Source: Candidatus Tayloriibacteriota bacterium (GTDB lineage: Bacteria; Patescibacteriota; Minisyncoccia; Phycocordibacterales; PALSA-1337). Taken from it: 52,572 nucleotides of DNA. Positions 5-40,361 of the stretch are shown here, in pieces. The stretch spans positions 1-52,572 of the forward strand of contig JBAXUB010000008.1 of assembly GCA_037129895.1 (NCBI GenBank). Reading direction: 5' to 3'. The first letter of the stretch is position 1; the number at the start of each line of letters is the position of its first letter. Under the pieces are notes generated by a model. It saw only the letters and a list, made by a program, of their open reading frames with translations. It made no database searches and was not told the origin of the DNA. Made by a program: the position numbers and the translations under genes.

Positions 5-1615
5 ATGAATAATCAAACCAAAAAGTTTTTCATTTATACTCGCAAGTCTACGGACGACAAAGACAGACAAGTCCGCAGTATTTCCGACCAACTAGCGGAA
101 TTGAAAGATTTAGCGTTGAAAGAACAGCTGGAAGTGGTTGATGTCTTTGTCGAGAAACAGACCGCCAAAATACCAGGTCGGCCTGTGTTTAACGAGATGA
201 TGTTGAGAATGGAAAATGGCGAGGCCTCTGGTATTTTGGCGTGGCACCCCGATAGACTTGCGAGAAACTCGGTAGATGGAGGAAAAATAATCTACCTCGT
301 TGATACTGGTGTAATTTCAGAAATGAAATTTCCAACTTTTTGGTTTGATCCGACACCGCAAGGCAAGTTCATGCTTTCAATCGCTTTTTCGCAATCCAAG
401 TATTATGTGGATAATTTGAGCGAAAATATAAAACGAGGTCATCGCAACAAAGTGAAAGACGGAATATGGCCTCAAATGTCTCCGCTTGGATATGTGAATG
501 TAAAAGGCAAAGGTATTGTTCCAGATATTGAAAACGCAAAATTGATTAAAAAGACATTTGAGGCATATTCGTCTGGGTCTTTCACTTTGCGACAACTTCG
601 CGACAAGTTTAATGAACTTGGATTGAAACGAAAAAGTGGAAAGGAACTTGCGGTGTCGAATTATCAGCAAATCCTCAAAAATCCTATCTATACGGGGCTA
701 ATGAGGTATAACGGAGAGATTTTTGAGGGAAAGCACGAACCTATTATCACAAAGAAACTTTTTGATTCCGTTCAAGAAGTGATGATGAGAAAATCCAAGC
801 CGAAAGGTAAAGGACTGAAAGAATATATTTACAGAGGATTTTTCCGTTGCGGAGAATGTGGTTGTTTCATTACTACCGAAACACAAAAGGGTCATAACTA
901 TCTCCGCTGTACCAAACGGAAAAATCCTTGTTTGCAAAAATATGTTCGTGAAAAAATCATCACTTCTCAAATCAGAACGGAATTACAAAAAGTTTCTTTG
1001 CCACTCGATTGGGCAAATTGGATGATTGCCGAAAATGAGAAAGATCGGCAATTGGAAGTCCAATCGAGTGAGATTTTTTCTCAAAAAACAAAAAATGAAA
1101 TTTCTCTTTTAGATTCCAAAATTGAGAAGCTGATGAACGCATATCTTGAAAACGCACTTTCGTTAGACGAATATCGTGATTCCAAAAACAAGTTGATGTG
1201 CCAAAAACAGCTTCTCAAAGAGAAATTATCAGCTTTTGAGAAAAAATCTCATAATCGGTTCGAACTTGCTGATAGATTCATAAAATCCAGTATAAACAAT
1301 ATGGAATTGGCAAACGAGGGAATTCCCGAAAAGATTTTTCGGGAATTCAAAAAAGTCGGTTCGAACTTTCAAATTAAGGATCGAACCGTACTTTTTGAGC
1401 CACGCGGAGCGTGGCGAATCCTTGCAGAATTAGGATTTTTTGGGGGGAATTCGGAACAGACGGCACTTCGTGCCGACCATATTTTTTGCGGAAATTTGAA
1501 TTCCGATTTGATGCGGAGAGGGGGAGATTCGAACTCCCGAAGAGCTTACGCCCTTGCCGCTTTTCGAAAGCGGTACATTCGACCACTCTGTCACCTCTCC
1601 AATAGTGAACATTAA
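5..1615 (+). CDS. Large serine recombinase (resolvase + recombinase + Zn-ribbon + coiled coil); 3' end runs antisense through tRNA-Ser
   Basis: N-terminal YTRKS catalytic motif, DRLARN, NPIYTG...GKHEPII recombinase domain, CGECG..C zinc ribbon. Confidence 0.92.
   Translation: MNNQTKKFFIYTRKSTDDKDRQVRSISDQLAELKDLALKEQLEVVDVFVEKQTAKIPGRPVFNEMMLRMENGEASGILAWHPDRLARNSVDGGKIIYLVDTGVISEMKFPTFWFDPTPQGKFMLSIAFSQSKYYVDNLSENIKRGHRNKVKDGIWPQMSPLGYVNVKGKGIVPDIENAKLIKKTFEAYSSGSFTLRQLRDKFNELGLKRKSGKELAVSNYQQILKNPIYTGLMRYNGEIFEGKHEPIITKKLFDSVQEVMMRKSKPKGKGLKEYIYRGFFRCGECGCFITTETQKGHNYLRCTKRKNPCLQKYVREKIITSQIRTELQKVSLPLDWANWMIAENEKDRQLEVQSSEIFSQKTKNEISLLDSKIEKLMNAYLENALSLDEYRDSKNKLMCQKQLLKEKLSAFEKKSHNRFELADRFIKSSINNMELANEGIPEKIFREFKKVGSNFQIKDRTVLFEPRGAWRILAELGFFGGNSEQTALRADHIFCGNLNSDLMRRGGDSNSRRAYALAAFRKRYIRPLCHLSNSEH
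1514..1600 (-). tRNA. tRNA-Ser(CGA)
   Basis: Reverse complement GGAGAGGTGACAGAGTGGTCGAATGTACCGCT-TTCGAAA-AGCGG...GGGAGTTCGAATCTCCCCCTCTCCG; long variable arm, G discriminator. Confidence 0.95.
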
Positions 1616-1693: not shown

Positions 1694-1768
1694 GGCCCTA
1701 TCGTCTATCGGTTAGGACATTTGCTTTTCAAGCAAGTAAGCCGGGTTCGACTCCCGGTAGGGTCACCA
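1694..1768 (+). tRNA. tRNA-Glu(TTC)
   Basis: GGCCCTA...TTTGC-TTTTCAA-GCAAG...CCGGGTTCGACTCCCGG-TAGGGTC-A-CCA. Confidence 0.95.
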
Positions 1769-2125: not shown

Positions 2126-2647
2126 TTAGGAGCCCTTTTCTTTTTTGTGCCATTCTATGTAGGTTTTGATGTTGTATAAATAGTCAAAAAATTCAGCTCC
2201 GAAATGTTTGTACAGAGATGAAGCAAAATCTCTATTTGGGAAAAGTATCTTCATGAACCGACCTTTCTTGATCAAATAGTCCACCACCTTTTTATAATCT
2301 CCGTCTCCAGATACGATAACTACTTTATCGAAATCTTTATTTTCAATTAGATTTTTCATTATTTCAAAGACGATATCGGTATCAACATTACCTTTCTTCG
2401 TACTTTTGAGCACAGGATTATGTTCCTTGAATAAGACAATAAAACCAGATTTTTGCAGATTGTTATACAAATCCTGTTCTGCTTCGGATACATACCCTAG
2501 AAAATAGTAAGCTTCAGCTATATGGTATTTATCCTTGAGATATACCCTGAGTTTCTTCAGATCAACTTTCCAACCATCTTGAATAGTACCAAGATGGAGA
2601 TTTTGGCCGTCTATGAAGGCGATATTTGATTCCTTTGGTTTATCCAT
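2126..2647 (-). CDS. NYN-domain (LabA/DUF88, PIN-like) protein
   Basis: AFIDGQNL, KGNVDTDIV and VSGDGDY motifs. Confidence 0.92.
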   Translation of the reverse strand: MDKPKESNIAFIDGQNLHLGTIQDGWKVDLKKLRVYLKDKYHIAEAYYFLGYVSEAEQDLYNNLQKSGFIVLFKEHNPVLKSTKKGNVDTDIVFEIMKNLIENKDFDKVVIVSGDGDYKKVVDYLIKKGRFMKILFPNRDFASSLYKHFGAEFFDYLYNIKTYIEWHKKEKGS

Positions 2648-3146: not shown

Positions 3147-3344
3147 ATGACAGGAACAATCAAGACTTTGATGCCAAAAGGGTTCGGTTTTATCTCTCGC
3201 GAGGGAGAAACAAAAGACCTCTTTTTCCACTCAAACGACCTATCAGGAGTATCATTTAACGACCTCAAAGAGGGCGATACAGTGAATTTCGAGGTAGTAG
3301 ATGGCCAAAAGGGCCCAAGTGCAAAGAATGTAACACGCGTATAA
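3147..3344 (+). CDS. cspA: Cold-shock protein
   Basis: KGFGFI (RNP1), DLFFH (RNP2), KGPSAKNV. Confidence 0.95.
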   Translation: MTGTIKTLMPKGFGFISREGETKDLFFHSNDLSGVSFNDLKEGDTVNFEVVDGQKGPSAKNVTRV

Positions 3345-3358
3345 ATCACGCTTTTACT

Positions 3359-3394
3359 AGAAAAAACACTCTCTTAACTGAGGGTGTTTTTTCT
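3359..3394. terminator. Bidirectional intrinsic terminator
   Basis: AAAAAACACTCTC-ttaact-GAGGGTGTTTTTT between convergent genes. Confidence 0.85.
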
Positions 3395-3428
3395 TTGCTT
3401 ACTCCGATCATGTTTCTCCCATATCACA

Positions 3429-3890
3429 TCACCTAGTCGCATAAATACTTGGCGTCAATTCCCCTGTTGAACTAGCTGTAATACGACCGTTGCCGTCTAG
3501 ATAGATCCAATACCCAGTATCGTAGTCGTCAACACTTACGAAACCTGCTGTTGTTATCGACGGATCAAATGGCAATGAAGATATGTAATTCGGTACCAGA
3601 CAATATGCCAGATCTCCAGCATCCGCATGATCTCCGCTACCCTTAACCTCAGTCCATACATTTGGTATTGCTTTCACCACACCATCGCAGACAAAGACAC
3701 CTCGATGCTCAGCCATGTTTTGATGCACGGCATTCAGTATCGCATTCACATTACTCGTGCGCTGAGAATCTCTAGCCAATTTGAACTGTCGAGCAGGATT
3801 CACCGCTACCAATACTATAGTTGCTAGAATCGCTATGATACCGATAACCACTAGAATTTCGATCAGAGTAAAACCTTTGTTTTTGTGCAT
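3429..3890 (-). CDS. Type IV pilin / pseudopilin (probable major pilin)
   Basis: KGFTLIEILVVIGIIAILA prepilin cleavage/N-methylation motif; ARDSQRTSNV. Confidence 0.92.
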   Translation of the reverse strand: MHKNKGFTLIEILVVIGIIAILATIVLVAVNPARQFKLARDSQRTSNVNAILNAVHQNMAEHRGVFVCDGVVKAIPNVWTEVKGSGDHADAGDLAYCLVPNYISSLPFDPSITTAGFVSVDDYDTGYWIYLDGNGRITASSTGELTPSIYATR

Positions 3891-3964
3891 ATATTATTAC
3901 TATTATTTTAATAAAAACGGAACACTACTAGTCGAACTACTAACGAAACATAACGAACATCATG

Positions 3965-4030
3965 ATCTTACAATAAGCGGGATAAAATCCTGATAAATTT
4001 TCAATCAAGATTTGATAAAATTTTGATAAA
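3965..4030 (-). promoter_or_regulatory. Promoter with 11-bp-period TTTATC direct-repeat array (site A)
   Basis: GATAAA at 3981, 3992, 4014, 4025 (degenerate at 4003); -10 TAAGAT (3965-3970) is 10 bp from the proximal repeat. Confidence 0.8.
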
Positions 4031-4045
4031 GAAATATATACGCAA

Positions 4046-4381
4046 CTATTCATTAACTTTTACTATGACACCCAGCAATTCCGCTATAGCACCGACCGAT
4101 ACATGCCCTGCAAAATCGTTTGAGAAATGTAGTGTACAACCAAGTTCACTGATAGTCATCGTACCGGACAAGAAATAGTCAGCGCCGATCATAAGATCTG
4201 CTATATTCATACAGGATGACAGGTTGAGTTCGACCTGTGTCCGTATTTCTCTTCTATTAACCATATCCAAATACATGACTGCAGATGTTAGCGTCGACAA
4301 CGAAAATACAAGTAGACCGCTAGCAACGATCATTGTAGAGATCATAGCGATAAAACCACGATTTTGACTAATGATATGCAT
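4046..4381 (-). CDS. Minor pilin-like (PilX-type N-terminus) protein
   Basis: NRGFIAMISTMIV class III signal-like start; last gene of the pil operon. Confidence 0.75.
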   Translation of the reverse strand: MHIISQNRGFIAMISTMIVASGLLVFSLSTLTSAVMYLDMVNRREIRTQVELNLSSCMNIADLMIGADYFLSGTMTISELGCTLHFSNDFAGHVSVGAIAELLGVIVKVNE

Positions 4382-4526
4382 CGTAAATTTCTCGACTTAA
4401 CTTGATATTTTGATAATTTGTTTCCGATGCAAATATGAGAAAACCACTCATGAGCAGAGACAGCAATGAAATATACAACATCACCTCGATCAATGTGACG
4501 CCGCCTGACTTCTGATTTATCGTCAT
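4368..4526 (-). CDS. 52-aa minimal pilin-like protein (not in ORF track)
   Basis: MTINQKSGGVTLIEVMLYISLLSLLMSGFLIFASETNYQNIKLSREIYDAYH; ATGA overlap with the upstream stop. Confidence 0.8.
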   Translation of the reverse strand: MTINQKSGGVTLIEVMLYISLLSLLMSGFLIFASETNYQNIKLSREIYDAYH

Positions 4527-6025
4527 GGAATTTTTCTATTAATTGAAATTTCATATAATTCCGGTTTCGTATGAGACAACACATATATTTTGTCTAGATA
4601 ACATGTCATCGCTTGCGGAGATGAAGGTAGTGAATATTTCATAGAAGTACTAGCATTCAATTCATTACTATATATCTGAAACTCGCTGCCGATCTGTCTC
4701 GTGATCACATAGATGCTCTGCCTATCTCTCAAGATTCCATATACCCCACCAGGCATATCTAGCGACTGATAACTGGGTAATGTATACGAACCAATGGTGG
4801 TGCCGGACGTACTCGCTGCGAATTGAAGCAATTCATGCTCAGTCACTGTATTGTAACCACCAGATGTACGACCAAAAGACAGAGCATTTTCGAATAGTGT
4901 GGTGATCTTCCCTTCTTGCCTCTGCCAACCACTTGGACTGAAAGATGATAATGATTCGAACATTCCCATATTGGAAGTATTGAAGATCTGTAACTGTTTT
5001 TCATTCGCAGTAGATACGTAAGCGATATTATCTAGTATGTATATATCATTGACCTTGCTACCGATCTCGTAGCCAGCTACCTCTCTCGGTGACTCTGGAT
5101 CATGAACATCTATCGACAACAATTCATCACCAAGCCATTTTTCTGTACCTATATATATGAGGTCATTCGCGAATGATACTGTACTACCGAGTGCTGGTGT
5201 TGCAGTTGCATAAGGTAATGGTAATTGGAATCTCTTGACCAGTGACAATCCATGACTGGGGCTCTGCATCATGACGTGTAATTGGCCTACCGTAGAAGGT
5301 GCCGCGCCATATATATACTTACCTGCCACAGACAATGAAGATAGACCTGGACCAGTATTCAAATATGAAAGCAGGTCTACCCCGGCGTTTTGTCGAATTC
5401 TAAAGATGAATATATCTGGATCAAGTGAGACATTTGAGTCGGCAGATACATATACGACATCATTCCTAACCTGAACATCAGTCAATGGTATCGATGGATT
5501 TATTGGCAGCGTATAGGTAACAATATTTATGATAATTTCTGAAGAACTAGCGATACTACGAGTGGAGTATTCATCTCTATGTTTGTACCACTCATATGAC
5601 CCCACAACTGTACTATCACCAAAATCGACAGCACAGACTGGCTGATCTGATACCGGATCAATCAATGGTGAACGTGCAGAGATAGAAGTAAACTTGATCA
5701 TAGGCAGACTTAAGCCAGAACTAGTACTCGAACTAGGGATAGTACTTATGAAAGTATCTATCTCATCAAGGTGATTACCATAAGGAATCTTACCGACCTC
5801 TGCTATGAGGCCATCGGTAGTCGTACTCTGAAACGTAGAGCTAGAATTCACAATTTCATCATAATGATCGAGTAATAGAGTTCGCTCTCTAGCTTTGAAA
5901 AATATATCCCTGGAATATGCCGACGATTCAGACAATGATATAACAAAAATCAGACACACTGATAATGCGAGTAAAATATCAACGAGTATCACTCCTCTAA
6001 TGCTGTAATGTCTTTGATAGATCAT
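4523..6025 (-). CDS. Pilin-like N-terminus fused to LVIVD-type beta-propeller (putative pilus adhesin)
   Basis: RGVILVDILLAL N-terminus; repeated ..YV.....L.I.DV..P..P units. Confidence 0.75.
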   Translation of the reverse strand: MIYQRHYSIRGVILVDILLALSVCLIFVISLSESSAYSRDIFFKARERTLLLDHYDEIVNSSSTFQSTTTDGLIAEVGKIPYGNHLDEIDTFISTIPSSSTSSGLSLPMIKFTSISARSPLIDPVSDQPVCAVDFGDSTVVGSYEWYKHRDEYSTRSIASSSEIIINIVTYTLPINPSIPLTDVQVRNDVVYVSADSNVSLDPDIFIFRIRQNAGVDLLSYLNTGPGLSSLSVAGKYIYGAAPSTVGQLHVMMQSPSHGLSLVKRFQLPLPYATATPALGSTVSFANDLIYIGTEKWLGDELLSIDVHDPESPREVAGYEIGSKVNDIYILDNIAYVSTANEKQLQIFNTSNMGMFESLSSFSPSGWQRQEGKITTLFENALSFGRTSGGYNTVTEHELLQFAASTSGTTIGSYTLPSYQSLDMPGGVYGILRDRQSIYVITRQIGSEFQIYSNELNASTSMKYSLPSSPQAMTCYLDKIYVLSHTKPELYEISINRKIP

Positions 6026-7046
6026 ATATTGGCATCAAGATTGATAATGCTATCGCTCCGACAACAACTCCCATAGCGATCATCATTATCGGTTCTATGA
6101 GGGCCGTTAGCTTTTTCAAGGAATGCTCGATCTCCCTGTCGAGAATATTCGCTGCTCGAAGTATAGAGAGCCCCAATGTTCCAGATGATTCCCCTGCTGC
6201 TGTAAGAGCGACGATATACTGAGGAGTTGGTAGGATCGACAAGGCTATATTCAATGGTGACCCTCTAGAGACGATAGGTATCTTTGGTTCGAGTAGTCGA
6301 CGTATAGGCACATAACCGATAGAATTCACAGCATCACTGAAGGCTTTCGCTATAGATTGCCCTCCGTCTATGAGTGACCCAAATGAACGTAGGAATATTA
6401 CTACATTATAATTTCGAACTACTACGCCAATCAGTGGTGTTTTAGATACAGAGGATTGGACGAGCCTTCTAAACAGAGTCGAACTTCTGTAAAGCCAAAT
6501 AGATACAAACGCAAATATTATAATAATTAGGGCGATATATAGACCGTAACGCAATACTACATCTGAACAAAATATCATAATCCTACTTATCAATGGAAGT
6601 TCTGTATGCAATCCTTTCAACATAGGAACGATCTGTGGCATCACACCGCGCATAAGTGCGATAACAAAAACGATTGAAAATATCCCGATAACTCCAGGGT
6701 AGACCATCGCTCCAAAGCATTTCTTCATTAGTTCTTCTTGCTTTTCCAGAATATCACGGACCATGGCTATGGAGGATGAAAGATTACCAGTTTTCTCACC
6801 ATTAGCGATGATACTGGCGAGAGTGCCTGACAACCTGGTCATGTAGACCAAGCCAGAAGAAAATAGAGCCCCTGACTCTATATGAGCTATCAGATTTCTC
6901 ACAGATGGCTTGTGCTTCGTACTTACCCCATCCACACAAAGTCGAAGTGCCATATCAATAGCCAAACCAGATGATAAGTATAGTTCTATTCTTTCCAATA
7001 AAATACACACATCACGCACTTTCCATTTTACGTGTCTTTTCATCAT
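5997..7046 (-). CDS. pilC: Type II secretion F / PilC-family inner-membrane platform protein
   Basis: GEKTGNL, AMVYP, AGESSGTL, LIEPIMM...ILMPIY motifs. Confidence 0.9.
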   Translation of the reverse strand: MMKRHVKWKVRDVCILLERIELYLSSGLAIDMALRLCVDGVSTKHKPSVRNLIAHIESGALFSSGLVYMTRLSGTLASIIANGEKTGNLSSSIAMVRDILEKQEELMKKCFGAMVYPGVIGIFSIVFVIALMRGVMPQIVPMLKGLHTELPLISRIMIFCSDVVLRYGLYIALIIIIFAFVSIWLYRSSTLFRRLVQSSVSKTPLIGVVVRNYNVVIFLRSFGSLIDGGQSIAKAFSDAVNSIGYVPIRRLLEPKIPIVSRGSPLNIALSILPTPQYIVALTAAGESSGTLGLSILRAANILDREIEHSLKKLTALIEPIMMIAMGVVVGAIALSILMPIYDLSKTLQH

Positions 7047-8194
7047 ATATTTAATACGCCCACTACTTCTTCTCTAGTTGTGATACCCCATTCTACTTTC
7101 TCCATTCCATCCTCTATAATCGGGCAAAACCCATTGAACCTAGCAACATTTTGCAGAGAAGATGAAGAAGTTTTCGCAGATATGAGATCGCGCATTACAG
7201 AGTCAATCTCACAGACTTCAGCTATAACTGATCGACCGAAGTATCCAGAAAATTTGCACCTATCACAACCCTCCGCAAAACATTCATGACACATCGTACG
7301 GACAAGACGTTGCGCGACTATGAGACGGAGAGTCGACGCCAATAAATAATGATCTACACCCATATCGACAAGTCTCGTTACTGCTTCTAGAGCTGAATTG
7401 GTATGCAGTGTCGAAAGAACCAAGTGACCAGTTAATGCTGTATGAACCGCAACTTTCGCCGTTTCATTGTCACGAATCTCACCAACCATGATGACGTCAG
7501 GATCTTGACGAAGAGCTGAGCGCAGACCACTTCCGAATGTCACACCATGACTATGCCTTATGTGAACTTGACGCACTCCAGGAATCTCATATTCAACTGG
7601 ATCCTCTAATGTCACGATAGATAATGGCTCACGCACTTTCAATGACAGACATGTATGAAGCGTTGTAGTCTTACCAGAACCGGTAGGACCAGTGACTAGG
7701 ATGAGTCCATGAGTATTCTTCATCGCTTTGTCTATCAGCCGCACATGATCTGGAGTGAATCCCAATTTTGCAAAAGATGTATCTACATTCGTCTTTGATG
7801 GCAACAACCTAATCACAGCATTCTCTCCATGATATGTAGGCATAAACGATATACGAAGATTATACTCTTCACCATTTATGTTCGTCCTCCATCTTCCATC
7901 CTGTGGCATTGCATGAATATCGGTCCTAGCTCCTGAAAGGATCTTCAGTCTAGCTATAACTTCCTCATGTAAGCGTATATTGATCGTACCAACTTCGCCT
8001 ATTCGACCATCTACACGAAACCTCACGATCATGTCATCTTTCCTAGGATCACAATGAATATCCGAGGTCCTCATGTACGCAGCAAAGGCCAAAACCTTAT
8101 CGATCGCTTCTACTGCTGTTTGCGGATTTTGAGGAAAATCAAGTACTGCATTTTGCCCCTGTTTATTAATATTTATATTTGATTCATTATTCAT
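7043..8194 (-). CDS. pilB: GspE/PilB-family assembly ATPase
   Basis: SDIH, PQDGR, GPTGSGKTTT, TLEDPVEY, LRQDPDVIMVGEIRD, TGHLVLSTLH. Confidence 0.95.
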   Translation of the reverse strand: MNNESNININKQGQNAVLDFPQNPQTAVEAIDKVLAFAAYMRTSDIHCDPRKDDMIVRFRVDGRIGEVGTINIRLHEEVIARLKILSGARTDIHAMPQDGRWRTNINGEEYNLRISFMPTYHGENAVIRLLPSKTNVDTSFAKLGFTPDHVRLIDKAMKNTHGLILVTGPTGSGKTTTLHTCLSLKVREPLSIVTLEDPVEYEIPGVRQVHIRHSHGVTFGSGLRSALRQDPDVIMVGEIRDNETAKVAVHTALTGHLVLSTLHTNSALEAVTRLVDMGVDHYLLASTLRLIVAQRLVRTMCHECFAEGCDRCKFSGYFGRSVIAEVCEIDSVMRDLISAKTSSSSLQNVARFNGFCPIIEDGMEKVEWGITTREEVVGVLNI

Positions 8195-8200
8195 GCAGAC

Positions 8201-8255
8201 ACAATATCAAATGACAGATAAAATCCTGATAAAATTTTGATAAAGAATTGATAAA
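8201..8255 (-). promoter_or_regulatory. Promoter with TTTATC direct-repeat array (site B), leaderless pilB
   Basis: GATAAA at 8217, 8228, 8239, 8250; TG-n-TATTGT -10 (8201-8206) 10 bp from the proximal repeat and 6 nt before ATG. Confidence 0.8.
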
Positions 8256-8423
8256 GAAAGTCTCAAGATTTTCCCCAACAAATAGCTTCGATCTCAAATC
8301 GGTAAGAGATTTAGGTCGACTTTGACAGATCCAGCATACGTGGTAACATATAGTCTGCTGTTCTTTCGGATAAATGTGCTGAGGGAACGAGCTCGGATAA
8401 ACTAAGCAAACAAAAGGAAAATA

Positions 8424-8624
8424 GTGGCAAAAACTGCTATAACACCCTCGATCAAAACAACTCCACCGTGCATACGGTGGCAAGTCGGATCCAATGCTGT
8501 AGGACAATCAGTGCGTTGCCAAGGCAAGTGTTCGTCGGTCACTCGACTGAATACCCTGGCATTGGTACTCGCCAATATGAAGATCCGGCACAACCCCAAT
8601 CCACCAAATCAGGAGGCGGAATAA
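8424..8624 (+). CDS. Hypothetical 66-aa protein (or ncRNA) in its own transcription unit
   Basis: AAGGA upstream of GTG start; downstream terminator; no family recognised. Confidence 0.4.
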   Translation: MAKTAITPSIKTTPPCIRWQVGSNAVGQSVRCQGKCSSVTRLNTLALVLANMKIRHNPNPPNQEAE

Positions 8625-8673
8625 CGGAGGGCCGTCATACCCTCCATAAATACAAATACAGAATAATTTATCC

Positions 8674-8704
8674 AAGCGGGCGGCAATTGCCACCCGCTTT
8701 TTTT
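8674..8704 (+). terminator. Intrinsic terminator
   Basis: AAGCGGGCGGC-AATT-GCCACCCGCTT followed by T run. Confidence 0.8.
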
Positions 8705-8740
8705 GCATAGGTCTGACCTCTGCAGAGGTCTGACCTCTAC
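8704..8740. repeat. Two tandem copies of 21-bp palindrome family (core AGGTC[T/A]GACCT)
   Basis: TGCATAGGTCTGACCTCTGCAGAGGTCTGACCTCTAC; other copies at 11717, 16928, 33463. Confidence 0.8.
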
Positions 8741-8824
8741 ATTAACTATCCTTGACTTCTATCATCTTTTCATGCTTTACTTATAGGAACGAGCCAGCGG
8801 CTCTATTTTAATTATTTAATCCTT

Positions 8825-10732
8825 ATGGAAATCCGCAATATAGCTATAATAGCGCACGTCGACCACGGCAAAACCACCCTCACAGACGCCATAATGACCC
8901 AATGCGGTCACGGTGACGAAGGTACGATGGATTCCAACGCCCTAGAACAAGAGCGTGGTATTACGATATATGCAAAAAATACTTCAGTTAACTACAAAGG
9001 TACCAAGATCAATATAGTAGACACTCCGGGACATGCTGACTTCGGATCAGAAGTCGAACGTGTTCTACGCGCTATTGATGCGGTATTACTCGTAGTTGAT
9101 GCTCAGGAAGGCCCAATGCCTCAAACACGATTCGTATTGAAAAAATCTCTCGAGCTAGGACTCCGACCTATCGTAGTTATCAACAAGATCGATAAGCCAG
9201 CAGCGAACCCAGCACGCGTTCATGATGAAGTATTGGAACTTTTCATGGAACTCGGTGCACACGATTCTCAGATCGACTTCCCAACTATCTATGCTATTGG
9301 TCGAACTGGTGTTGCGAAAAAATCTCTTACAGATGACTCCAAGGATCTCACTCCACTTCTCGATACTATTCTCGAATATGTGCCAGCAGCTAATAGAGCA
9401 GGTAAGATTAAAGATGCTGTAGGGACTTTCGGAGTGAGCGAAGGCGAGCGAGAAGGAGCTGCGGCGCTAGCAAGCGCCGACAGCGTTCCCGGAAGCACTA
9501 TGATCTTACCTGCAGCATTAACTGCACAGGTATTCAACCTCGGCTATGACAATTTCCTAGGTCGCTTGGCAGTATGTCGAATATATTCTGGAGCGATCAA
9601 GGACGGTCAGAACATTTGGATAAAAGACGTTAGCGGAAAATCATTTACCGGCAAAGTGACCAAACTATTTACATTCGAAGGAAAGAAACGTCTAGAAGTA
9701 GCACAAGCAGAAGCTGGTGACATCGTCACCGTTGCTGGAGTGCCGGAGATATTCATCGGTGAGACCATCACTGATAATGTCAATACGGAGCCCTTACCAG
9801 CTATCAAAGTTGATGAACCAACAATCTCTCTACAATTTCTGGTTAACAATTCACCATTTGCGGGCAAGGAAGGAACATTCGTTACGGGCAGACAGATCCG
9901 TGAGAGACTAGAGCGCGAACTGGAGACTAACGTCGGATTGAAAGTTGATTTTTCATCAAACGAATATTATACAGTCTATGGTCGCGGTGAACTCCATATC
10001 GGTATATTACTAGAAAATATGCGACGTGAAGGATTCGAACTTCAGGTTTCTCAACCAAAAGTAATCATCAAGGAGGAGAAGGACGAAGCTGGTAATATCA
10101 CAAAAACCTTCGAACCGTTCGAAGAGGTTATCATTGACGCTCCACAGGAATATTCTGGTATCATCATAGAGACACTAGGTAAGCGTAAAGCGATCATGTC
10201 CAACATGACAGCACACGGCAATCAGGTTCGCATAGTTTTCGAAATGCCAACAAGAGGACTTCTGGGATATCGTAATACATTCACTATAGATACGAAGGGT
10301 GAAGGTATCATGTCTAGTCGCGTTACAGGCTTCAAAGATCATGTTGGAGTTATAGAAAAGCGCGAAACAGGTTCGATGACTTCTATGGTTTCTGGTAAAT
10401 CTTTTGGCTTTTCACTATGGAATCTGCAAGACCGCGGAAGACTATTCATCATTCCTGCTATGGATATTTACGAGGGTATGGTTATCGGTGATACATCAAA
10501 AGGTGACGATCTAGAAGTTAACCCATGTAAAGGAAAGCAGCTATCAAATATGCGTTCTTCTGGAAAAGATGAAGCTCTCACACTCGTGCCACCATTTATA
10601 TTGAGTATTGAACGTGGACTAGAACTCATGCGCGATGATGAATACCTAGAGATCACCCCGAAAAATATACGATTACGCAAGAAATTCCTCACAGAACTAG
10701 ATCGAGCACGAGCTAGAAGGAAGGATCTATAA
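8825..10732 (+). CDS. typA: Translational GTPase TypA/BipA with an in-frame insertion
   Basis: [46 protein letters not shown]. Confidence 0.97.
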
Positions 10733-10815
10733 AGTCTATAAAAAGCGGCGCCGAATCTATATTCGACGCCAGTGATTGAAGCCACACTTGTGGACATTAT
10801 GCCTTATGGACGAAG

Positions 10816-11157
10816 CTATTGTTCCTGTTTGGGATGCGGATGGATAGTGAGTCCGTCCGGTTCCGAAACCATACCGTTCAGAAATTTGCGCATTTCCTGA
10901 TACAACCTGTGCACGTCTGTAAGTGTTTTCGAGCCCGATTCCCCTATCATGCTCTCATCCCATTTCGAGGAGAGATCATGTATGGCAGGCATGAGTCGGC
11001 AGAGCAAGTCCAGCGCCCTGACTTCATTGAAATTGCAGCCGTACAGTCTGCCCATCGTCATCTCGAGCTTGGTTCTCAATTCTTCTGGTACTCCCAGAGT
11101 TTCGAGTTGAACCAGCATCTTGGCCAATTCCACCAGATATATTCTATTGTCATTCAT
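10816..11157 (-). CDS. Hypothetical protein (likely start 11157)
   Basis: ORF track 10816-11211; AAGGA precedes the ATG at 11157; no family recognised. Confidence 0.6.
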   Translation of the reverse strand: MNDNRIYLVELAKMLVQLETLGVPEELRTKLEMTMGRLYGCNFNEVRALDLLCRLMPAIHDLSSKWDESMIGESGSKTLTDVHRLYQEMRKFLNGMVSEPDGLTIHPHPKQEQ

Positions 11158-11226
11158 AAATACTATTTCCTTTCTCTGCAAACAGACTACATCAGCTGCA
11201 GAATATGTCAACCTGCTCGTAATGGT

Positions 11227-12042
11227 TCAATAGCTTGGAAACACCCTTCCTATCTTCGTCCTATTGATCGATAGTGCTATAGCTGCGACTCCGAGATCTT
11301 GACCTATTCTATCAGCTAACGACCTCATATAGGTGCCACTTGAACATCTAACTCTGATCTTAACTGACGGCCATGCTGTCTGGCAGTTTTTCAATAGCCG
11401 GATCCAGGCTTGTATTATTTGATCTTGTCTAAAATCTCCCTTAACTAGACCAATTCTACTGACTATCATTGACAACAGTTTTTCAGACTCGATTGGCACA
11501 ATTTTGTTCTCTACCATTTCAATACTATATATTTCTACTTCCCTCGTAGGCATCTCTTCCGGCAATGCACCGCTTCTAGCCAATTCATGGAGCTGTTTGC
11601 CACCAACGGTTTTTGATGAATACGGTGGGTACTGTTGAACAAACTTCCCAGTATATCCATTCAAATATTCCTGATTCATTATATTCCCAATCTGACTAAG
11701 TCTTATCTCTGTATCGTGTAGAGGTCTGACCTCTACAATACCTAAAGCGTCGAAAGTATCAGTTTTAATACCGAACAAGACTTCGACTTCGTATTCTTTA
11801 TTCAGGTTCAAGAACTTTTCCTTCTCTTTACATTCATCTCCTATCAATATCATAAGTTGACCTTCTGCCATGGGATCAAGGCGCCCGGCGTATGTTAGCG
11901 GTACATCTTTCCAAGAATATTTCGTATCAGTCAAAGATTTGCCATCTACGCATAGTTCACCACTTTGCATTTTAGATAATCTAAATTTTTCCAATGCTTC
12001 AAGTGGCGTCTCACCTATATTCTTATGGATGATTTGGGACAT
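11227..12042 (-). CDS. truB: tRNA pseudouridine(55) synthase TruB-like
   Basis: YAGRLDPMAEG, KEYEV, TDTFD, PPYSS, CSSGTYMRSL. Confidence 0.92.
   Translation of the reverse strand: MSQIIHKNIGETPLEALEKFRLSKMQSGELCVDGKSLTDTKYSWKDVPLTYAGRLDPMAEGQLMILIGDECKEKEKFLNLNKEYEVEVLFGIKTDTFDALGIVEVRPLHDTEIRLSQIGNIMNQEYLNGYTGKFVQQYPPYSSKTVGGKQLHELARSGALPEEMPTREVEIYSIEMVENKIVPIESEKLLSMIVSRIGLVKGDFRQDQIIQAWIRLLKNCQTAWPSVKIRVRCSSGTYMRSLADRIGQDLGVAAIALSINRTKIGRVFPSY
11717..11737. repeat. 21-bp palindrome copy inside truB
   Basis: TGTAGAGGTC-T-GACCTCTACA with perfect 10-bp arms; encodes VEVRPL. Confidence 0.75.
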
Positions 12043-12076
12043 AAGGAGATATTAGCATAGAAATTTGTCTTAATCC

Positions 12077-12142
12077 TTTATTACTTCTTTATCATTTCTT
12101 TATCAAAATTTTATCAGGATTTTATCTATTCTCTGGTACTGT
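12077..12142 (+). promoter_or_regulatory. Promoter with TTTATC direct-repeat array (site C) upstream of tRNA-like RNA
   Basis: TTTATC at 12088, 12099, 12110, 12121 (TTTATT at 12077); TG-n-TACTGT -10 at 12137-12142, 10 bp downstream. Confidence 0.8.
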
Positions 12143-12171
12143 CTCATTGCGCAGGCATCTTGCCTTCGCGT

Positions 12172-12244
12172 GGCCCCGTGAGACGGTCTTGGCTTTTACC
12201 TCATCAATAAAAGTCTGCGGGTTCGACTCCCGCCAGGGCCACCA
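12172..12244 (+). ncRNA. Non-canonical tRNA-like RNA
   Basis: Acceptor GGCCCCG/CAGGGCC + A-CCA; perfect T arm GCGGG-TTCGACT-CCCGC; vestigial D arm; 8-bp stem GGCTTTTA/TAAAAGTC with 9-nt loop CCTCATCAA; 1-nt variable region. Confidence 0.75.
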
Positions 12245-12254
12245 AATATCGAAC

Positions 12255-12282
12255 TTGACGAACTCTTGTTTTCAACTATAAT
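12255..12282 (+). promoter_or_regulatory. Sigma70-type promoter for downstream sRNA
   Basis: TTGACG-N16-TATAAT. Confidence 0.7.
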
Positions 12283-12288
12283 GATAAC

Positions 12289-12373
12289 CAATTGATGAGG
12301 TAGAAGCTGCGGAACGCTGAGAAAGGAAAACTCGCAGACTTAGTAAAGACTCGCTTCGGCGGGTTTTTACTTT
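12289..12373 (+). ncRNA. Putative ~85-nt sRNA antisense to the tRNA-like RNA
   Basis: Own promoter; 5' ATTGATGAGGTAGAAGC complementary to 12192-12208; CTGCG/CGCAG stem; terminator AGTAAAGACTCGC-TTCG-GCGGGTTTTTACT; no ATG-initiated ORF longer than 2 codons. Confidence 0.65.
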
Positions 12374-12405
12374 AAATATTAATCCATTCCTGCTACAATA
12401 TCCCC

Positions 12406-13680
12406 ATGGCAGATAAAGCAAAAAAACTGAATACTGAGGCTTATAAAGGCGTCCGAGACTTCTTTCCGCAGGATATGGCGATCGAAAAGGCTATTTTCGG
12501 CGTATGGAGAAATGTCTGCGAGAAATATGGTTACGAAGAATACGGTGCTTCTGTATTGGAGCCGGCCGAACTTTATCGTGCAAAATCAGGCGAAGAGATA
12601 GTAAACGAACAGACTTACACATTCACAGATCGTGGAGATCGTGAAGTGACATTGCGTCCAGAGATGACACCAACTGTAGCTCGTATGGTCGCAGCAAAGA
12701 AACGCGAACTCGCCTTTCCGTTACGCTGGTACTCGATTCCAAACCTTTTCCGTTATGAACAACCACAGAGAGGCCGCGTCCGTGAACATTGGCAGCTCAA
12801 TGTGGACATATTCGGCGTTGATTCGATAAACGCAGAGATTGAGACTATCAATATGGCTTACGATATTATGCGTGCTTATGGCCTCAAAGATACCGACTTC
12901 GAGATACGTGTAAACAACCGGAAACTGATGAACTATGTAACACGCGACGTATTCTCACTAGATGAGTCAACCGCACAGAAAGTCTCTAAACTGATCGACA
13001 AGAAAGACAAGATGAAGCCCGAGACATTCGAGCTCGGTGCAAAGGAATTACTCGGAGAAAATACTCAGAAATTTTTGACACTTCTCAATTCACAGAATTT
13101 TGAGGAATTCACCTCGAGACTCCCGCAGACAAAAGAGGAACATCTCGGCCTCAAGGAGATTCGCGAAGTCATCGCTGGCCTAGAAAAGCTAGGTATAACC
13201 AATACACGTTTTGACCAAACTCTGATGCGCGGATTTGACTATTATACTGGGATCGTATTCGAAGTATTCGACCTCAATCCCGCAAATCGTCGTGCCGTTT
13301 TTGGTGGTGGTAGATATGATGACCTATTGGCACTATTCGGCAATGACAAGGTATCAGCTGTCGGATTTGGCTCTGGTGATGTGATCGCTCGTGACATTAT
13401 GGAAACCTATGGAACACTGCCAGCAGTGAAAGCGCCAGCCAATATAGCTATCTGCATACTTGGCACACAGAATACATCATACGCACTGGATGTGGCTCAA
13501 TCATTACGATCAAAAGGGACGAAAGTCACCGTCAATATATCTGGAAAGAAGCTCAGTGATCAGATCAGTAATGCAGACAAATGCAGTATACCTCTAGTCA
13601 TTTGCATCGGCGACGAAGAAGTCAAAACTGGCAAACTTAAAATCAAGGACCTGAAGAGCGGTGAGGAAAAGGAGTTGTAA
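12406..13680 (+). CDS. hisS: Histidine--tRNA ligase
   Basis: KGVRDF, LRPEMT, FRYEQPQRGRVREHWQ, RGFDYYTG, GGGRYD. Confidence 0.97.
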   Translation: MADKAKKLNTEAYKGVRDFFPQDMAIEKAIFGVWRNVCEKYGYEEYGASVLEPAELYRAKSGEEIVNEQTYTFTDRGDREVTLRPEMTPTVARMVAAKKRELAFPLRWYSIPNLFRYEQPQRGRVREHWQLNVDIFGVDSINAEIETINMAYDIMRAYGLKDTDFEIRVNNRKLMNYVTRDVFSLDESTAQKVSKLIDKKDKMKPETFELGAKELLGENTQKFLTLLNSQNFEEFTSRLPQTKEEHLGLKEIREVIAGLEKLGITNTRFDQTLMRGFDYYTGIVFEVFDLNPANRRAVFGGGRYDDLLALFGNDKVSAVGFGSGDVIARDIMETYGTLPAVKAPANIAICILGTQNTSYALDVAQSLRSKGTKVTVNISGKKLSDQISNADKCSIPLVICIGDEEVKTGKLKIKDLKSGEEKEL

Positions 13681-39859: not shown

Positions 39860-40172
39860 ATGGGAATAAAATATTTGATTCACTAGTTCGACTAGGCGTC
39901 ACTCCTAGAAAATCATTGACCATTTTACATCCGGCAGTGATCAATTTCTCATACGACTATCTGAGCTATTGCATGAATATTTCGGTCTGAGTTTACAAAG
40001 AACTTTACGGAGTTGGACAGCTTTTCAGCTCCGTTATGGAACCAAAGATTCAATACGATTATTTGCGGAGCTTTACAAAAGTTGTAAAAAAGGCGATTAT
40101 TTAGAGCGCAGGTATGAAATATTCAAAGAATTTTTCAAATTGCACAAAAGGCCATGTGGCGAAGATAGCTAA
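39860..40172 (+). pseudogene. Collapsed LAGLIDADG homing-endonuclease remnant abutting tRNA-Cys
   Basis: Segments in shifting frames: MGIKY / IFDSLVRLGVTPRKSLT / FTSGSDQFL...FQLRYGTKDSIRLFAELY...LERRY; catalytic helices missing. Confidence 0.6.
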
Positions 40173-40223
40173 CGCGACGGTCTGCAAAACCGTTATACGT
40201 GGGTGCAAGTCCCACCATGGCCT
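40150..40223 (+). tRNA. tRNA-Cys(GCA)
   Basis: GGCCATG...ACGGT-CTGCAAA-ACCGT...GTGGG-TGCAAGT-CCCAC-CATGGCC-T. Confidence 0.93.
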
Positions 40224-40273
40224 CAAGTCATTGTGAAGTATTAATAGAAAACAGTTCACATTGACAAACACCC

Positions 40274-40357
40274 GCCCGGGTGGTGAAATTGGTAAACACG
40301 TAACACTTAAAATGTTATCTCTTACAAGGGTTGTGGGTTCGATTCCCACCCCGGGCA
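40274..40357 (+). tRNA. tRNA-Leu(TAA)
   Basis: GCCCGGG...TAACA-CTTAAAA-TGTTA, variable arm, GTGGGTTCGATTCCCAC-CCCGGGC-A. Confidence 0.95.
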
Positions 40358-40361
40358 CTTG

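Follow-up and report, generated by a model that had tools for sequence, protein, structure and literature searches.

The sites of PhoB in Escherichia coli (the pho box) and of PhoP in Bacillus subtilis are direct repeats with an 11-bp period, and the proximal repeat ends 10 bp before the -10 hexamer, where it replaces the -35 element. Competence regulons are known under other switches, namely, ComK in Bacillus, ComX/SigX in streptococci, and Sxy/TfoX-CRP in Haemophilus and Vibrio. Here we analyze arrays of the hexamer TTTATC in a 52,572-nucleotide contig of a Candidatus Tayloriibacteriota bacterium (JBAXUB010000008.1 of assembly GCA_037129895.1, positions 1 to 52,572; this whole stretch is referred to below as the window) and in the rest of its genome. 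We postulate, with a probability of roughly 70%, that an activator binds these arrays to switch on a competence (DNA-uptake) regulon specific to one clade; the arrays would be read by the only OmpR/PhoB-family regulator that the genome encodes.

A similar promoter architecture has been described for streptococcal CiaR, which recognizes TTTAAG-N5-TTTAAG ten bases from the -10 hexamer at 15 promoters, the five strongest of which drive csRNAs (PMC3091779). The likeness to the arrays comprises an OmpR-family regulator, the 10-bp gap to the -10 hexamer, a set of about 15 promoters that includes small RNAs, and a link to competence. CiaR sites have two repeats, whereas we found 4 to 7; their essential last base is G rather than C; and CiaR has VVEVYVSKVRKKL as its recognition helix, which differs from FSNTVEAHMRNLRVKL of the candidate regulator described below. 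CiaR also dampens competence indirectly, whereas here the genes of the DNA-uptake machinery themselves carry the sites. In Synechococcus elongatus, the OmpR-family regulator RpaA is reported to act upstream of natural competence and pilus genes (10.1101/822627). The arrangement proposed here resembles it in setting an OmpR-family regulator over competence and pilus genes. RpaA differs in being a global circadian output regulator, and to our knowledge neither a repeat-array architecture nor a dedicated regulon is known for it.

With PhoB and PhoP, the arrays and their candidate regulator share the winged-helix family, the 11-bp period, and replacement of the -35 element; as in B. subtilis PhoP, there are at least four hexamers rather than two. 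The differences are the lineage, the half-site TTTATC, the presence of up to 7 units, a regulator that is not a PhoB orthologue, and the lack of any phosphate gene among the 17 targets, since no pst- or pho-type domain was detected in the first genes downstream of the 17 promoters. Judged by these comparisons, the array regulon belongs to neither the Pho nor the Cia regulon, and most likely it works like them. Like the regulons of ComK, ComX/SigX, and Sxy/TfoX-CRP, it would bring pilus or pseudopilus genes, ComEC, DprA, SSB, and ComM under one switch. Where those regulons depend on a ComK box, an alternative sigma factor, or a CRP-S site, this one would depend on a response regulator and a direct-repeat array. 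Neither recA nor comF belongs to it, and many of its mRNAs are predicted to be leaderless.

Three arrays are located in the window (Table 1), and an earlier note on this DNA had given their coordinates, a common proximal end (TTTATCAGGATTTTATC), and a 10-bp gap followed by TAAGAT, TATTGT, or TACTGT; reading the sequence at each site confirmed all of these. The same note counted four to five TTTATC hexamers per array. Each array does have four perfect units, and the additional ones, TTGATT in array 1 and the distal TTTATT in array 3, are degenerate. The pattern TTTATC-N5-TTTATC occurs eight times in the window, every time inside one of the three arrays, compared with an expectation of 0.04, and none of 100 shuffles reached eight. 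The targets that the note had named, a pilin gene, a pilB-pilC-minor pilin operon, and a tRNA-like RNA (hereafter RNA-A), were also borne out, with the ATPase of the operon proving to be short and ComGA-like. At the pilin promoter, transcription is predicted to start near position 3958, leaving a 5' untranslated region of about 68 nt. At the operon promoter, the A of the ATPase ATG (8194) lies at +23 from the end of the array, exactly at the predicted transcription start, and the operon mRNA is predicted to be leaderless.

The window is contig C24 of a genome (G000) that comprises 841,529 bp in 25 contigs, has 42% G+C, and is rated 100% complete; its genes were called simply as longest open reading frames. 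We detected 14 arrays of at least four units with at most three mismatches in the whole genome versus none in each of five shuffles. Looser criteria combined with a weight matrix extended the set to 17 promoters with scores of 30 to 64 bits, compared with 10.6 bits for the best match in three shuffled genomes. The matrix was trained on 15 of the 17 sites, its sole independent recovery being the 17th site (C20:10218), and its remaining matches at 18 bits or more fall on these arrays again in another register. The genome-wide check that the earlier note had proposed thus came out in its favor: the motif is not dispersed over the genome. All 17 arrays consist of 4 to 7 units at exactly 11-bp period, point at the start of a gene or RNA, and precede a TAnnnT hexamer, at a distance of 10 bp in 16 promoters and 11 bp in one.

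The arrays are strongly enriched in front of competence and pilus genes: ComEC, a separate metallo-beta-lactamase (MBL)-fold protein, the ComGA/ComGB-type operon, the pilin, DprA, ComM, and SSB all have the motif. This core is the canonical gene set for DNA uptake and single-stranded DNA processing, and we therefore read the regulon as one for competence and not for pili or attachment in general. The array-driven ComEC, a 460-amino-acid (aa) channel protein, is without the C-terminal MBL domain. The Atlas model of the 312-aa MBL-fold protein, whose gene is followed by one for an M50 peptidase, aligns to ComEC-type Lactamase_B domains (TM 0.71 to 0.80), and its Atlas matches include clusters with Competence plus Lactamase_B architecture. 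ComEC thus appears to be split in this organism, with the 312-aa protein as its putative detached nuclease domain. The 383-aa ATPase lacks the N-terminal part of PilB. Pfam searches at an E value of ≤5 returned nothing usable for the 312-, 500-, 137-, 122-, 111-, and 73-aa proteins.

Table 1. Arrays, promoters, RNAs, and genes of the proposed regulon, with RNA-B and the array-free T2SSE loci. Positions refer to the window unless a contig (C) of the genome is given; array sequences are those of the transcribed strand.
Feature	Position	Strand	Remarks
Array 1	3981-4030	minus	Five units at 11-bp period, four perfect TTTATC and one TTGATT; 51.6 bits (weight matrix); TTTATC-AAAAT-TTTATC-AAATC-TTGATT-GAAAA-TTTATC-AGGAT-TTTATC; proximal unit 3981-3986
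Pilin promoter, -10 hexamer TAAGAT	3965-3970	minus	10 bp from array 1
Array 2	8217-8255	minus	Four perfect TTTATC units; 62.2 bits (weight matrix); TTTATC-AATTC-TTTATC-AAAAT-TTTATC-AGGAT-TTTATC
ATPase-operon promoter, -10 hexamer TATTGT	8201-8206	minus	Extended -10 (TG two bases upstream); 10 bp from array 2
Array 3	12077-12126	plus	TTTATT and four TTTATC units; 57.6 bits (weight matrix); TTTATT-ACTTC-TTTATC-ATTTC-TTTATC-AAAAT-TTTATC-AGGAT-TTTATC
RNA-A promoter, -10 hexamer TACTGT	12137-12142	plus	TG upstream; 10 bp from array 3; predicted start 12149
RNA-A	12149-12244	plus	5' hairpin 12149-12170, then tRNA-like cloverleaf 12172-12244
RNA-A pairing segment	12190-12208	plus	3' side of D-arm, 5' strand of anticodon stem, and loop; complementary to 5' end of RNA-B
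RNA-B promoter	12255-12282	plus	Canonical sigma-70 type, TTGACG-N16-TATAAT; best match (11/12) in 3300-12500
RNA-B	12290-12369	plus	About 80 nt; single-stranded 5' end 12291-12309, one stem-loop, terminator hairpin and U-run
Major pilin, 153 aa	3429-3890	minus	Prepilin N-methylation motif; behind array 1
Competence-pilus operon	4046-8194	minus	Behind array 2; five genes
ComGA/GspE-type ATPase, 383 aa	7043-8194	minus	T2SSE 368 bits; ComGA model 250 bits (cutoff 300)
ComGB/GspF-type platform protein, 349 aa	5997-7046	minus	
500-aa protein	4523-6025	minus	Pilin-like (prepilin) N terminus
Prepilin-like protein, 52 aa	4368-4526	minus	Prepilin N terminus
Membrane protein, 111 aa	4046-4381	minus	
ComEC	Array C5:917, gene C5:940-2322		Competence and DUF4131 domains
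Separate MBL-fold protein, 312 aa	Array C5:3266, gene C5:3325-4263		Membrane anchored; own array, 1 kb downstream of ComEC
DprA, then TopA	C12:51975		DprA: TIGR00732, 196.6 bits (cutoff 191)
ComM/YifB	C25:6964		TIGR00368, 524.6 bits
rpsF-ssb	C1:19752		
PemK-like protein and cardiolipin-synthase/PLD-like protein	C10:3855		
LCAT/alpha-beta-hydrolase-like lipase, 945 aa	Array C1:6593, gene C1:3711-6548		
Two Y1 (IS200-type) transposase-like genes	C22:8735		This one with own array; the other downstream of the C4 array pair
Basic protein family, ~137 aa	C4:15953 and C20:10218 (C20:9782-10218)		Paralogues, each behind an array
Basic protein, 122 aa	C4:16579		Looks unrelated to the 137-aa family
Acidic protein, 73 aa	C22:26878		
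Two further array-driven RNAs	C2:1646 and C23:9339		Regulator-adjacent small RNA and RNA-A-like module, respectively
Regulator-adjacent small RNA	C2:~1440-1624 (L003)	minus	About 190 nt, 5' hairpin, strong terminator
Array-free T2SSE loci	C25:35307, C1:80236, C19:25289, C4:9017, C4:10647		Four of PilB size and one shorter

A search of the genome for OmpR-family genes gave exactly one Trans_reg_C match, an OmpR/PhoB-family response regulator of 252 aa (C2:1732-2490) with a canonical receiver, a winged helix, and a conserved acceptor region. The earlier note had seen no such gene in the window, and the match is indeed on another contig. Seven further receiver-domain matches (eight in total) lie in short open frames of 132 to 143 aa, with one of 276 aa. 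The regulator scores below every NCBIfam equivalog cutoff (161 bits against the PhoB model, with a cutoff of 296), and its nearest solved relative is Thermotoga DrrD (1kgs; E value, 9e-47). It is physically linked to an array: six units start 25 bp past its stop codon, ahead of an unannotated RNA of about 190 nt, the regulator-adjacent small RNA (sRNA).

We examined 30 orthologous regulator loci (51 to 66% best-segment identity) from metagenome-assembled genomes labelled Saccharibacteria, Taylorbacteria, Paceibacteria, Minisyncoccia, or Patescibacteria group. At least three strict hexamers (TT[TCG]A[TA][CAT]) at 11-bp period were found within 300 nt downstream of the regulator in 20 of the 30, versus 2 of 980 control windows from the same loci. 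The 5' hairpin of the sRNA, GTTATGnGTCGACATAAC, recurs in 27/30 loci (L052-L080 for the relatives), a count that includes four variants added to the pattern by eye, whereas beyond the hairpin the sequence varies, often with a UCUUCC-like stretch. Neither this sRNA nor RNA-B, a second RNA of the window treated below, had an Rfam family match at an E value of ≤1; a match to RsmY was dismissed as noise (18.2 bits versus a gathering score of 57).

The regulator and the arrays have a similar phylogenetic range. Of 24 further genus genomes, 8 had three exact TTTATC units in register, whereas 16 genomes that represent other families of the order had none. A relaxed pattern (TTBAWC, three times) matched 47 of the 93 genus genomes, G000 included, versus 0 of 120 other genomes of the class (102 other genera), and a reversed-pattern control matched 1 and 3, respectively. 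The regulator was matched at an E value of ≤1e-40 in 85 of the 93 genus genomes (58 of the 59 of high quality). Its best matches are listed with 52 to 82% identity for 82 of the 92 other genus genomes, and two more have 33% and 60% over a partial match. Of the 120 class genomes, 17 had a match at an E value of ≤1e-20, none above 49% identity. The close regulator orthologue and the arrays share the same clade limits. The genomes are kin, so these counts are not independent, and the co-occurrence of motif and regulator amounts to one event, not many.

Arrays are also kept at orthologous promoters in four other species, for which we inspected every exact two-unit match; G022 and G002 gave 18 regions, and G005 and G018 gave 20. 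Three regions at contig ends, with too little sequence downstream (L166, L178, and part of L162), were set aside, as were two sites in G018 (L195 and L197) that are two-unit chance matches without a -10 hexamer or a nearby gene. In G022, arrays precede the sRNA, the MBL protein with the M50 peptidase, an NYN protein, the lipase, the pilin, rpsF-ssb, the ATPase operon, and RNA-A; in G002, they precede the sRNA, ComM, the pilin, and two copies of RNA-A. The list for G005 comprises the pilin, a Y1 transposase-like gene, ComEC, the MBL protein with the M50 peptidase, the ATPase operon, the 73-aa protein, and RNA-A, and that for G018 comprises the sRNA, the 73-aa protein, the pilin, ComEC, rpsF-ssb, the ATPase operon, ComM, and the lipase. 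A few arrays (L162, L172, L177, L180, L181, and L198) stand ahead of genes that are off the G000 list or of unclear identity. Of 30 dprA loci, retrieved from 61 genus genomes searched, at least 10 were seen by eye to have arrays; dprA of the two closest relatives (66 to 68% DprA identity) has none.

In the window, a gene for an NYN-domain (PIN-like nuclease) protein (2126-2647, minus strand) lies on the same strand downstream of the pilin gene, and its orthologue in G022 has an array of its own and a leaderless start (L165). The window copy may belong to the regulon through read-through.

Several findings weigh against the proposal. In G000 the regulator is an orphan, with no kinase gene adjoining and no array ahead of its own gene, and only 9 of the 30 orthologous loci (L059, L061, L069, L070, and L075-L079) have a kinase-like gene past the sRNA in the same orientation. 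The recognition helix, FSNTVEAH[I/M]RNLR, is almost invariant in the 30 orthologues while the hexamer favored by each species drifts (TTTATC, TTCATC, TTGAAC, TTGATC, or TTTAAC), so nothing from covariation ties the regulator to the sites. The survey of DNA-binding proteins in the genome covered the Trans_reg_C and Response_reg families only. Among the 92 other genus genomes, 46 have no match to the relaxed pattern though most have the regulator, which means that the pattern misses true sites by its strictness or that some genomes do without the system. A search for RNA runs that include window positions 3300 to 12500 found none. The weight-matrix scan of the genome placed no array at recA, the comF-like gene, or pilD, and an HHH_3 search of the genome gave no ComEA. 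The lipase, the PemK-like and PLD-like pair, the Y1 genes, and the ~137-aa and 73-aa proteins have no evident role in DNA uptake, and the program may be wider than competence.

The findings on the regulator would suit an alternative in which the competence regulon is real but is read by another DNA-binding protein, for instance, a lineage-specific one without a Pfam family, the sRNA or kinase beside the regulator being just another member. We consider this unlikely, though it is the alternative that fares best. Direct repeats with an 11-bp period, placed 10 bp from a -10 hexamer and replacing the -35 element, are the signature geometry of activation by the OmpR/PhoB family, of which this genome encodes one protein only. 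The order regulator-array-sRNA is also kept in 20 to 27 of the 30 loci. From this geometry, the uniqueness of the gene, its synteny, and the common clade range, we infer that the OmpR/PhoB-family protein is the reader. The earlier note had proposed one winged-helix activator for pilus genes and RNA-A. What stands of this is a single OmpR-type gene that is linked to an array and one array set that includes both the pilus genes and RNA-A; that the protein binds there is the part we would predict. At the nine loci with a kinase-like gene, the array may drive the kinase too, which would amount to positive feedback.

It could also be supposed that the arrays serve type IV pili used in attaching to a host or in motility, with the DNA-processing genes being incidental. 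Two of the three targets in the window are pilus genes, and the type IV pili of Saccharibacteria are reportedly tied to host association (PMC9894109). This supposition is very unlikely in view of where the arrays are absent and what else they drive. The genome has five full-length T2SSE matches and one of partial length, and the only one with an array (1/5, or 1/6 with the shorter match) is the short ComGA-like ATPase of the window, whereas ComEC, the ComEC-type MBL protein, DprA, ComM, and SSB are array-driven here and in relatives. The earlier note had left a choice between a switch for host attachment and one for competence; the target genes support competence, and attachment is left unsupported, four PilB-size ATPase loci and the shorter match being free of arrays. 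These four genes and the shorter match, in addition to the regulon ATPase, represent a large pilus complement for a genome of 841 kb.

The competence regulon proposed here would operate as follows. A phosphorylated OmpR/PhoB-family regulator would bind head to tail to 4 to 7 direct repeats that are one helical turn (11 bp) apart. Its proximal protomers would cover the would-be -35 region, where the proximal hexamer spans -28 to -23 and its neighbor spans -39 to -34, and would bring in RNA polymerase at promoters whose sole core element is an extended -10 (TGnTAnnnT). Transcription would start 7 nt past the -10 hexamer, which at 9 of the 17 promoters is the A of an ATG, giving leaderless mRNAs. 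DNA would be captured by the ComGA/ComGB-type pilus operon and the pilin, both encoded in the window. ComEC and the separate ComEC-type MBL protein would transport the DNA and degrade one strand. SSB, DprA-TopA, and ComM would protect and recombine the incoming strand. The co-induced set would further include accessory genes and three small RNAs, namely, the regulator-adjacent sRNA, RNA-A, and the RNA-A-like module on C23. What the sequence itself shows of this model is the motif, the constancy of its geometry, its targets across the genome, and their conservation.

The promoters themselves are consistent with this model. Their aligned consensus is cTTtATCAaatCTTtAtcaaaa.TTtATCAGgAtTTTATC-N7-TGa-TAnnaT; by a manual count on the alignment, TG is at the extended -10 position in 13 of the 17, and the sequence at the -35 position is ATCAGG/TCAGGA. 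A scan of window positions 3300 to 12500 for the -35/-10 consensus recovered none of the three array promoters and ranked the promoter of RNA-B first (11/12), which indicates that the organism uses canonical -35 elements elsewhere. The array promoters, by contrast, have no -35 hexamer. Direct repeats of a 6- to 7-bp half-site with a period of 10 to 11 bp, a gap of about 10 bp to the -10 hexamer, the absent -35 element, and a winged-helix response regulator in the genome are features of an OmpR/PhoB-type class II promoter, and all are seen here. An in-frame ATG is located at +23 from the end of the array (7 nt past the -10 hexamer) in eight promoters and at +24 in one, compared with about 0.3 of 17 expected for one fixed offset by our own arithmetic from base composition. 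Such positions are a signature of leaderless mRNAs, which suggests that 9 of the 17 regulon mRNAs are leaderless, and they provide the best support that sequence can offer for the predicted start sites.

Whether the sites would act positively is a matter on which position alone gives no sign, and the proximal units overlap the region that RNA polymerase must contact, as would suit repressor operators or roadblocks. We regard repression as highly improbable, however, because promoters without a -35 element should be weak unaided, and because the repeats lie wholly upstream of the -10 hexamer on one helix face, out to about -72, an arrangement that fits class II activation and would be unusual for repression. 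Least probable of all is that the arrays are not protein sites, their T-rich units, phased at about one helical turn, producing intrinsic (UP-like) curvature or, as the two exactly duplicated C4 arrays might suggest, being remnants of a small repeated mobile element; position-specific conservation (1.5 to 1.9 bits at ATC of the hexamer and AGGAT of the last spacer), the fixed distance to the -10 hexamer, retention at orthologues in other species despite differing flanks, and the lack of terminal repeats or element-like flanks all speak against it. The duplication on C4 (C4:15953-16628) is a tandem one of the array promoter, with the copies 626 bp apart; the upstream copy leads into the 122-aa protein and the downstream copy into a 137-aa protein.

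For Saccharibacteria, experiments published in 2023 demonstrated natural transformation that depends on comEC (PMC10633639). No regulator is named there, and the terms "response regulator" and "two-component" each occur zero times in that paper. Our literature searches for a competence regulator or regulon, a promoter motif, leaderless promoters, or tRNA-like sRNAs in Patescibacteria or the candidate phyla radiation (CPR) found nothing relevant. Thus, the PhoB/CiaR-like mechanism is known, and we did not find its use as a competence master switch in the CPR in print. The analysis provides a model, complete and open to test, for a CPR clade with 93 or more species representatives, consisting of a cis element, a list of 17 promoters, a single candidate master regulator, and predicted leaderless starts. 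Very few transcription factors are encoded by such organisms, and a clean regulon is therefore a rare entry to how they sense their surroundings or hosts. The model sets a DNA-uptake pilus apart from four other pilus systems in the same genome, and three conserved small RNAs that are absent from Rfam came to light. It also marks conserved members of unknown function, namely, the large lipase, the ~137-aa basic family, and the 73-aa acidic protein, as candidate factors for competence or prey exploitation. We speculate that the 945-aa lipase, induced along with the uptake genes, might serve to lyse prey or hosts, much as fratricide or type VI secretion is coupled to competence in other bacteria.

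RNA-A, the third target in the window, has a cloverleaf with a 4-bp mini D-arm and 4-nt loop, a long anticodon-like stem with a 9-nt loop, a 7-bp acceptor stem, a canonical T-arm, A73, and an encoded CCA. ARAGORN calls positions 12172 to 12244 tRNA-Met, and the Rfam tRNA model (RF00005) scores 27.4 bits, under its gathering score of 29. The consensus of RNA-A copies, with its 4-nt D-loop and a loop of 9 to 12 nt at the anticodon position, is not that of a tRNA. Elsewhere the genome has three other tRNA-Met genes, a full tRNA set, three tRNA-Ala genes, and a standard tmRNA (on C10).

Directly downstream is RNA-B, which is predicted to be constitutively promoted. The two RNAs of the window are complementary over 19 nt with G-U pairs allowed, a length that none of 300 shuffles reached. 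A covariance model built from five RNA-A copies matched 76 of the 93 genus genomes at an E value of ≤1e-3, with, by our reading, about 60 matches at 45 bits or more; its weak tail (about 33 to 36 bits) probably consists of ordinary tRNAs. Among the 30 best RNA-A loci, 27 have 12 to 22 nt of complementarity (G-U allowed) between the D/anticodon-arm segment and a site 38 to 81 nt downstream, and in 24 of those 27 a TTGAC...TAnnnT promoter lies directly upstream of the pairing site. A strict array precedes RNA-A in 16/30. The modules were read at window positions 12149 to 12369, at C23:~9020-9339 (minus strand), and at L171, L176, L178, L182, and L199-L228. Of six modules compared with shuffles, five had a pairing length that no more than 1 of 300 shuffles attained. 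Each species has its own paired sequences, for example, CCTCATCAAT/ATTGATGAGG in G000 and CCCACCCGTCAA/TTGACGGGTGGG in G002, so that it is the pairing and not the sequence that is conserved. In the second, diverged RNA-A-like module of G000, behind the array at C23:9339, the longest complementarity is not significant (118 of 300 shuffles reach it).

Alanine identity is established to reside in G3-U70 together with A73. Of the 30 RNA-A loci, 27 have G3-U70 and all 30 have A73, and neighboring acceptor pairs covary; the window copy has C3-G70 and is one of three such copies. RNA-A is like tRNA-Ala and the tRNA-like domain of tmRNA in its 7-bp acceptor stem, canonical T-arm, A73, and mostly G3-U70 pair, and it differs from them in having no normal anticodon loop (9 to 12 nt instead), a 4-bp D-arm, and a dedicated antisense partner. 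By inspection, RNA-B is about 55 to 80 nt long across loci and consists of the pairing segment, a short linker, and a terminator. The gene downstream is not conserved, which indicates that the module is autonomous.

Three other identities for these RNAs were considered and rejected. The first was that RNA-B is a cis-acting, T-box-like leader of hisS, a gene that lies 36 nt past the RNA-B terminator in the window; hisS follows the module in just 2 of the 30 loci, and most downstream genes are convergent. A two-piece tmRNA made of RNA-A and RNA-B was discarded since RNA-B had no conserved reading frame by inspection, ARAGORN called no tmRNA here, and the genome has its normal one. The last was a hammerhead at the CUGAUGAG-like 5' end of RNA-B. 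On visual inspection, conservation of the motif is lacking, since other copies read CUAGCAAG, CUGACUAG, or something else, and all of it pairs with RNA-A instead of forming a core.

We favor the view that the module is an antisense gate or sponge. More tentatively, it may be a new two-RNA switch in which a competence-co-induced, tRNA-like RNA-A, with the alanine identity set and no anticodon, pairs with RNA-B through a fast-evolving and always compensated complementarity. RNA-B could then gate an alanine-charged, nonribosomal tRNA mimic, which might be a decoy or might donate alanine in cell-envelope aminoacylation; alternatively, RNA-A could titrate RNA-B. We think such a switch possible rather than probable. 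If it exists, it would form, with the regulator-adjacent sRNA, a posttranscriptional layer of competence control in a CPR clade, and no counterpart of such a layer has been described. The window also encodes four ordinary tRNA genes (Ser-CGA, Glu-TTC, Cys-GCA, and Leu-TAA), at 1513-1600 (minus strand), 1694-1768 (plus strand), and 40150-40358 (plus strand), which are unrelated to the regulon.

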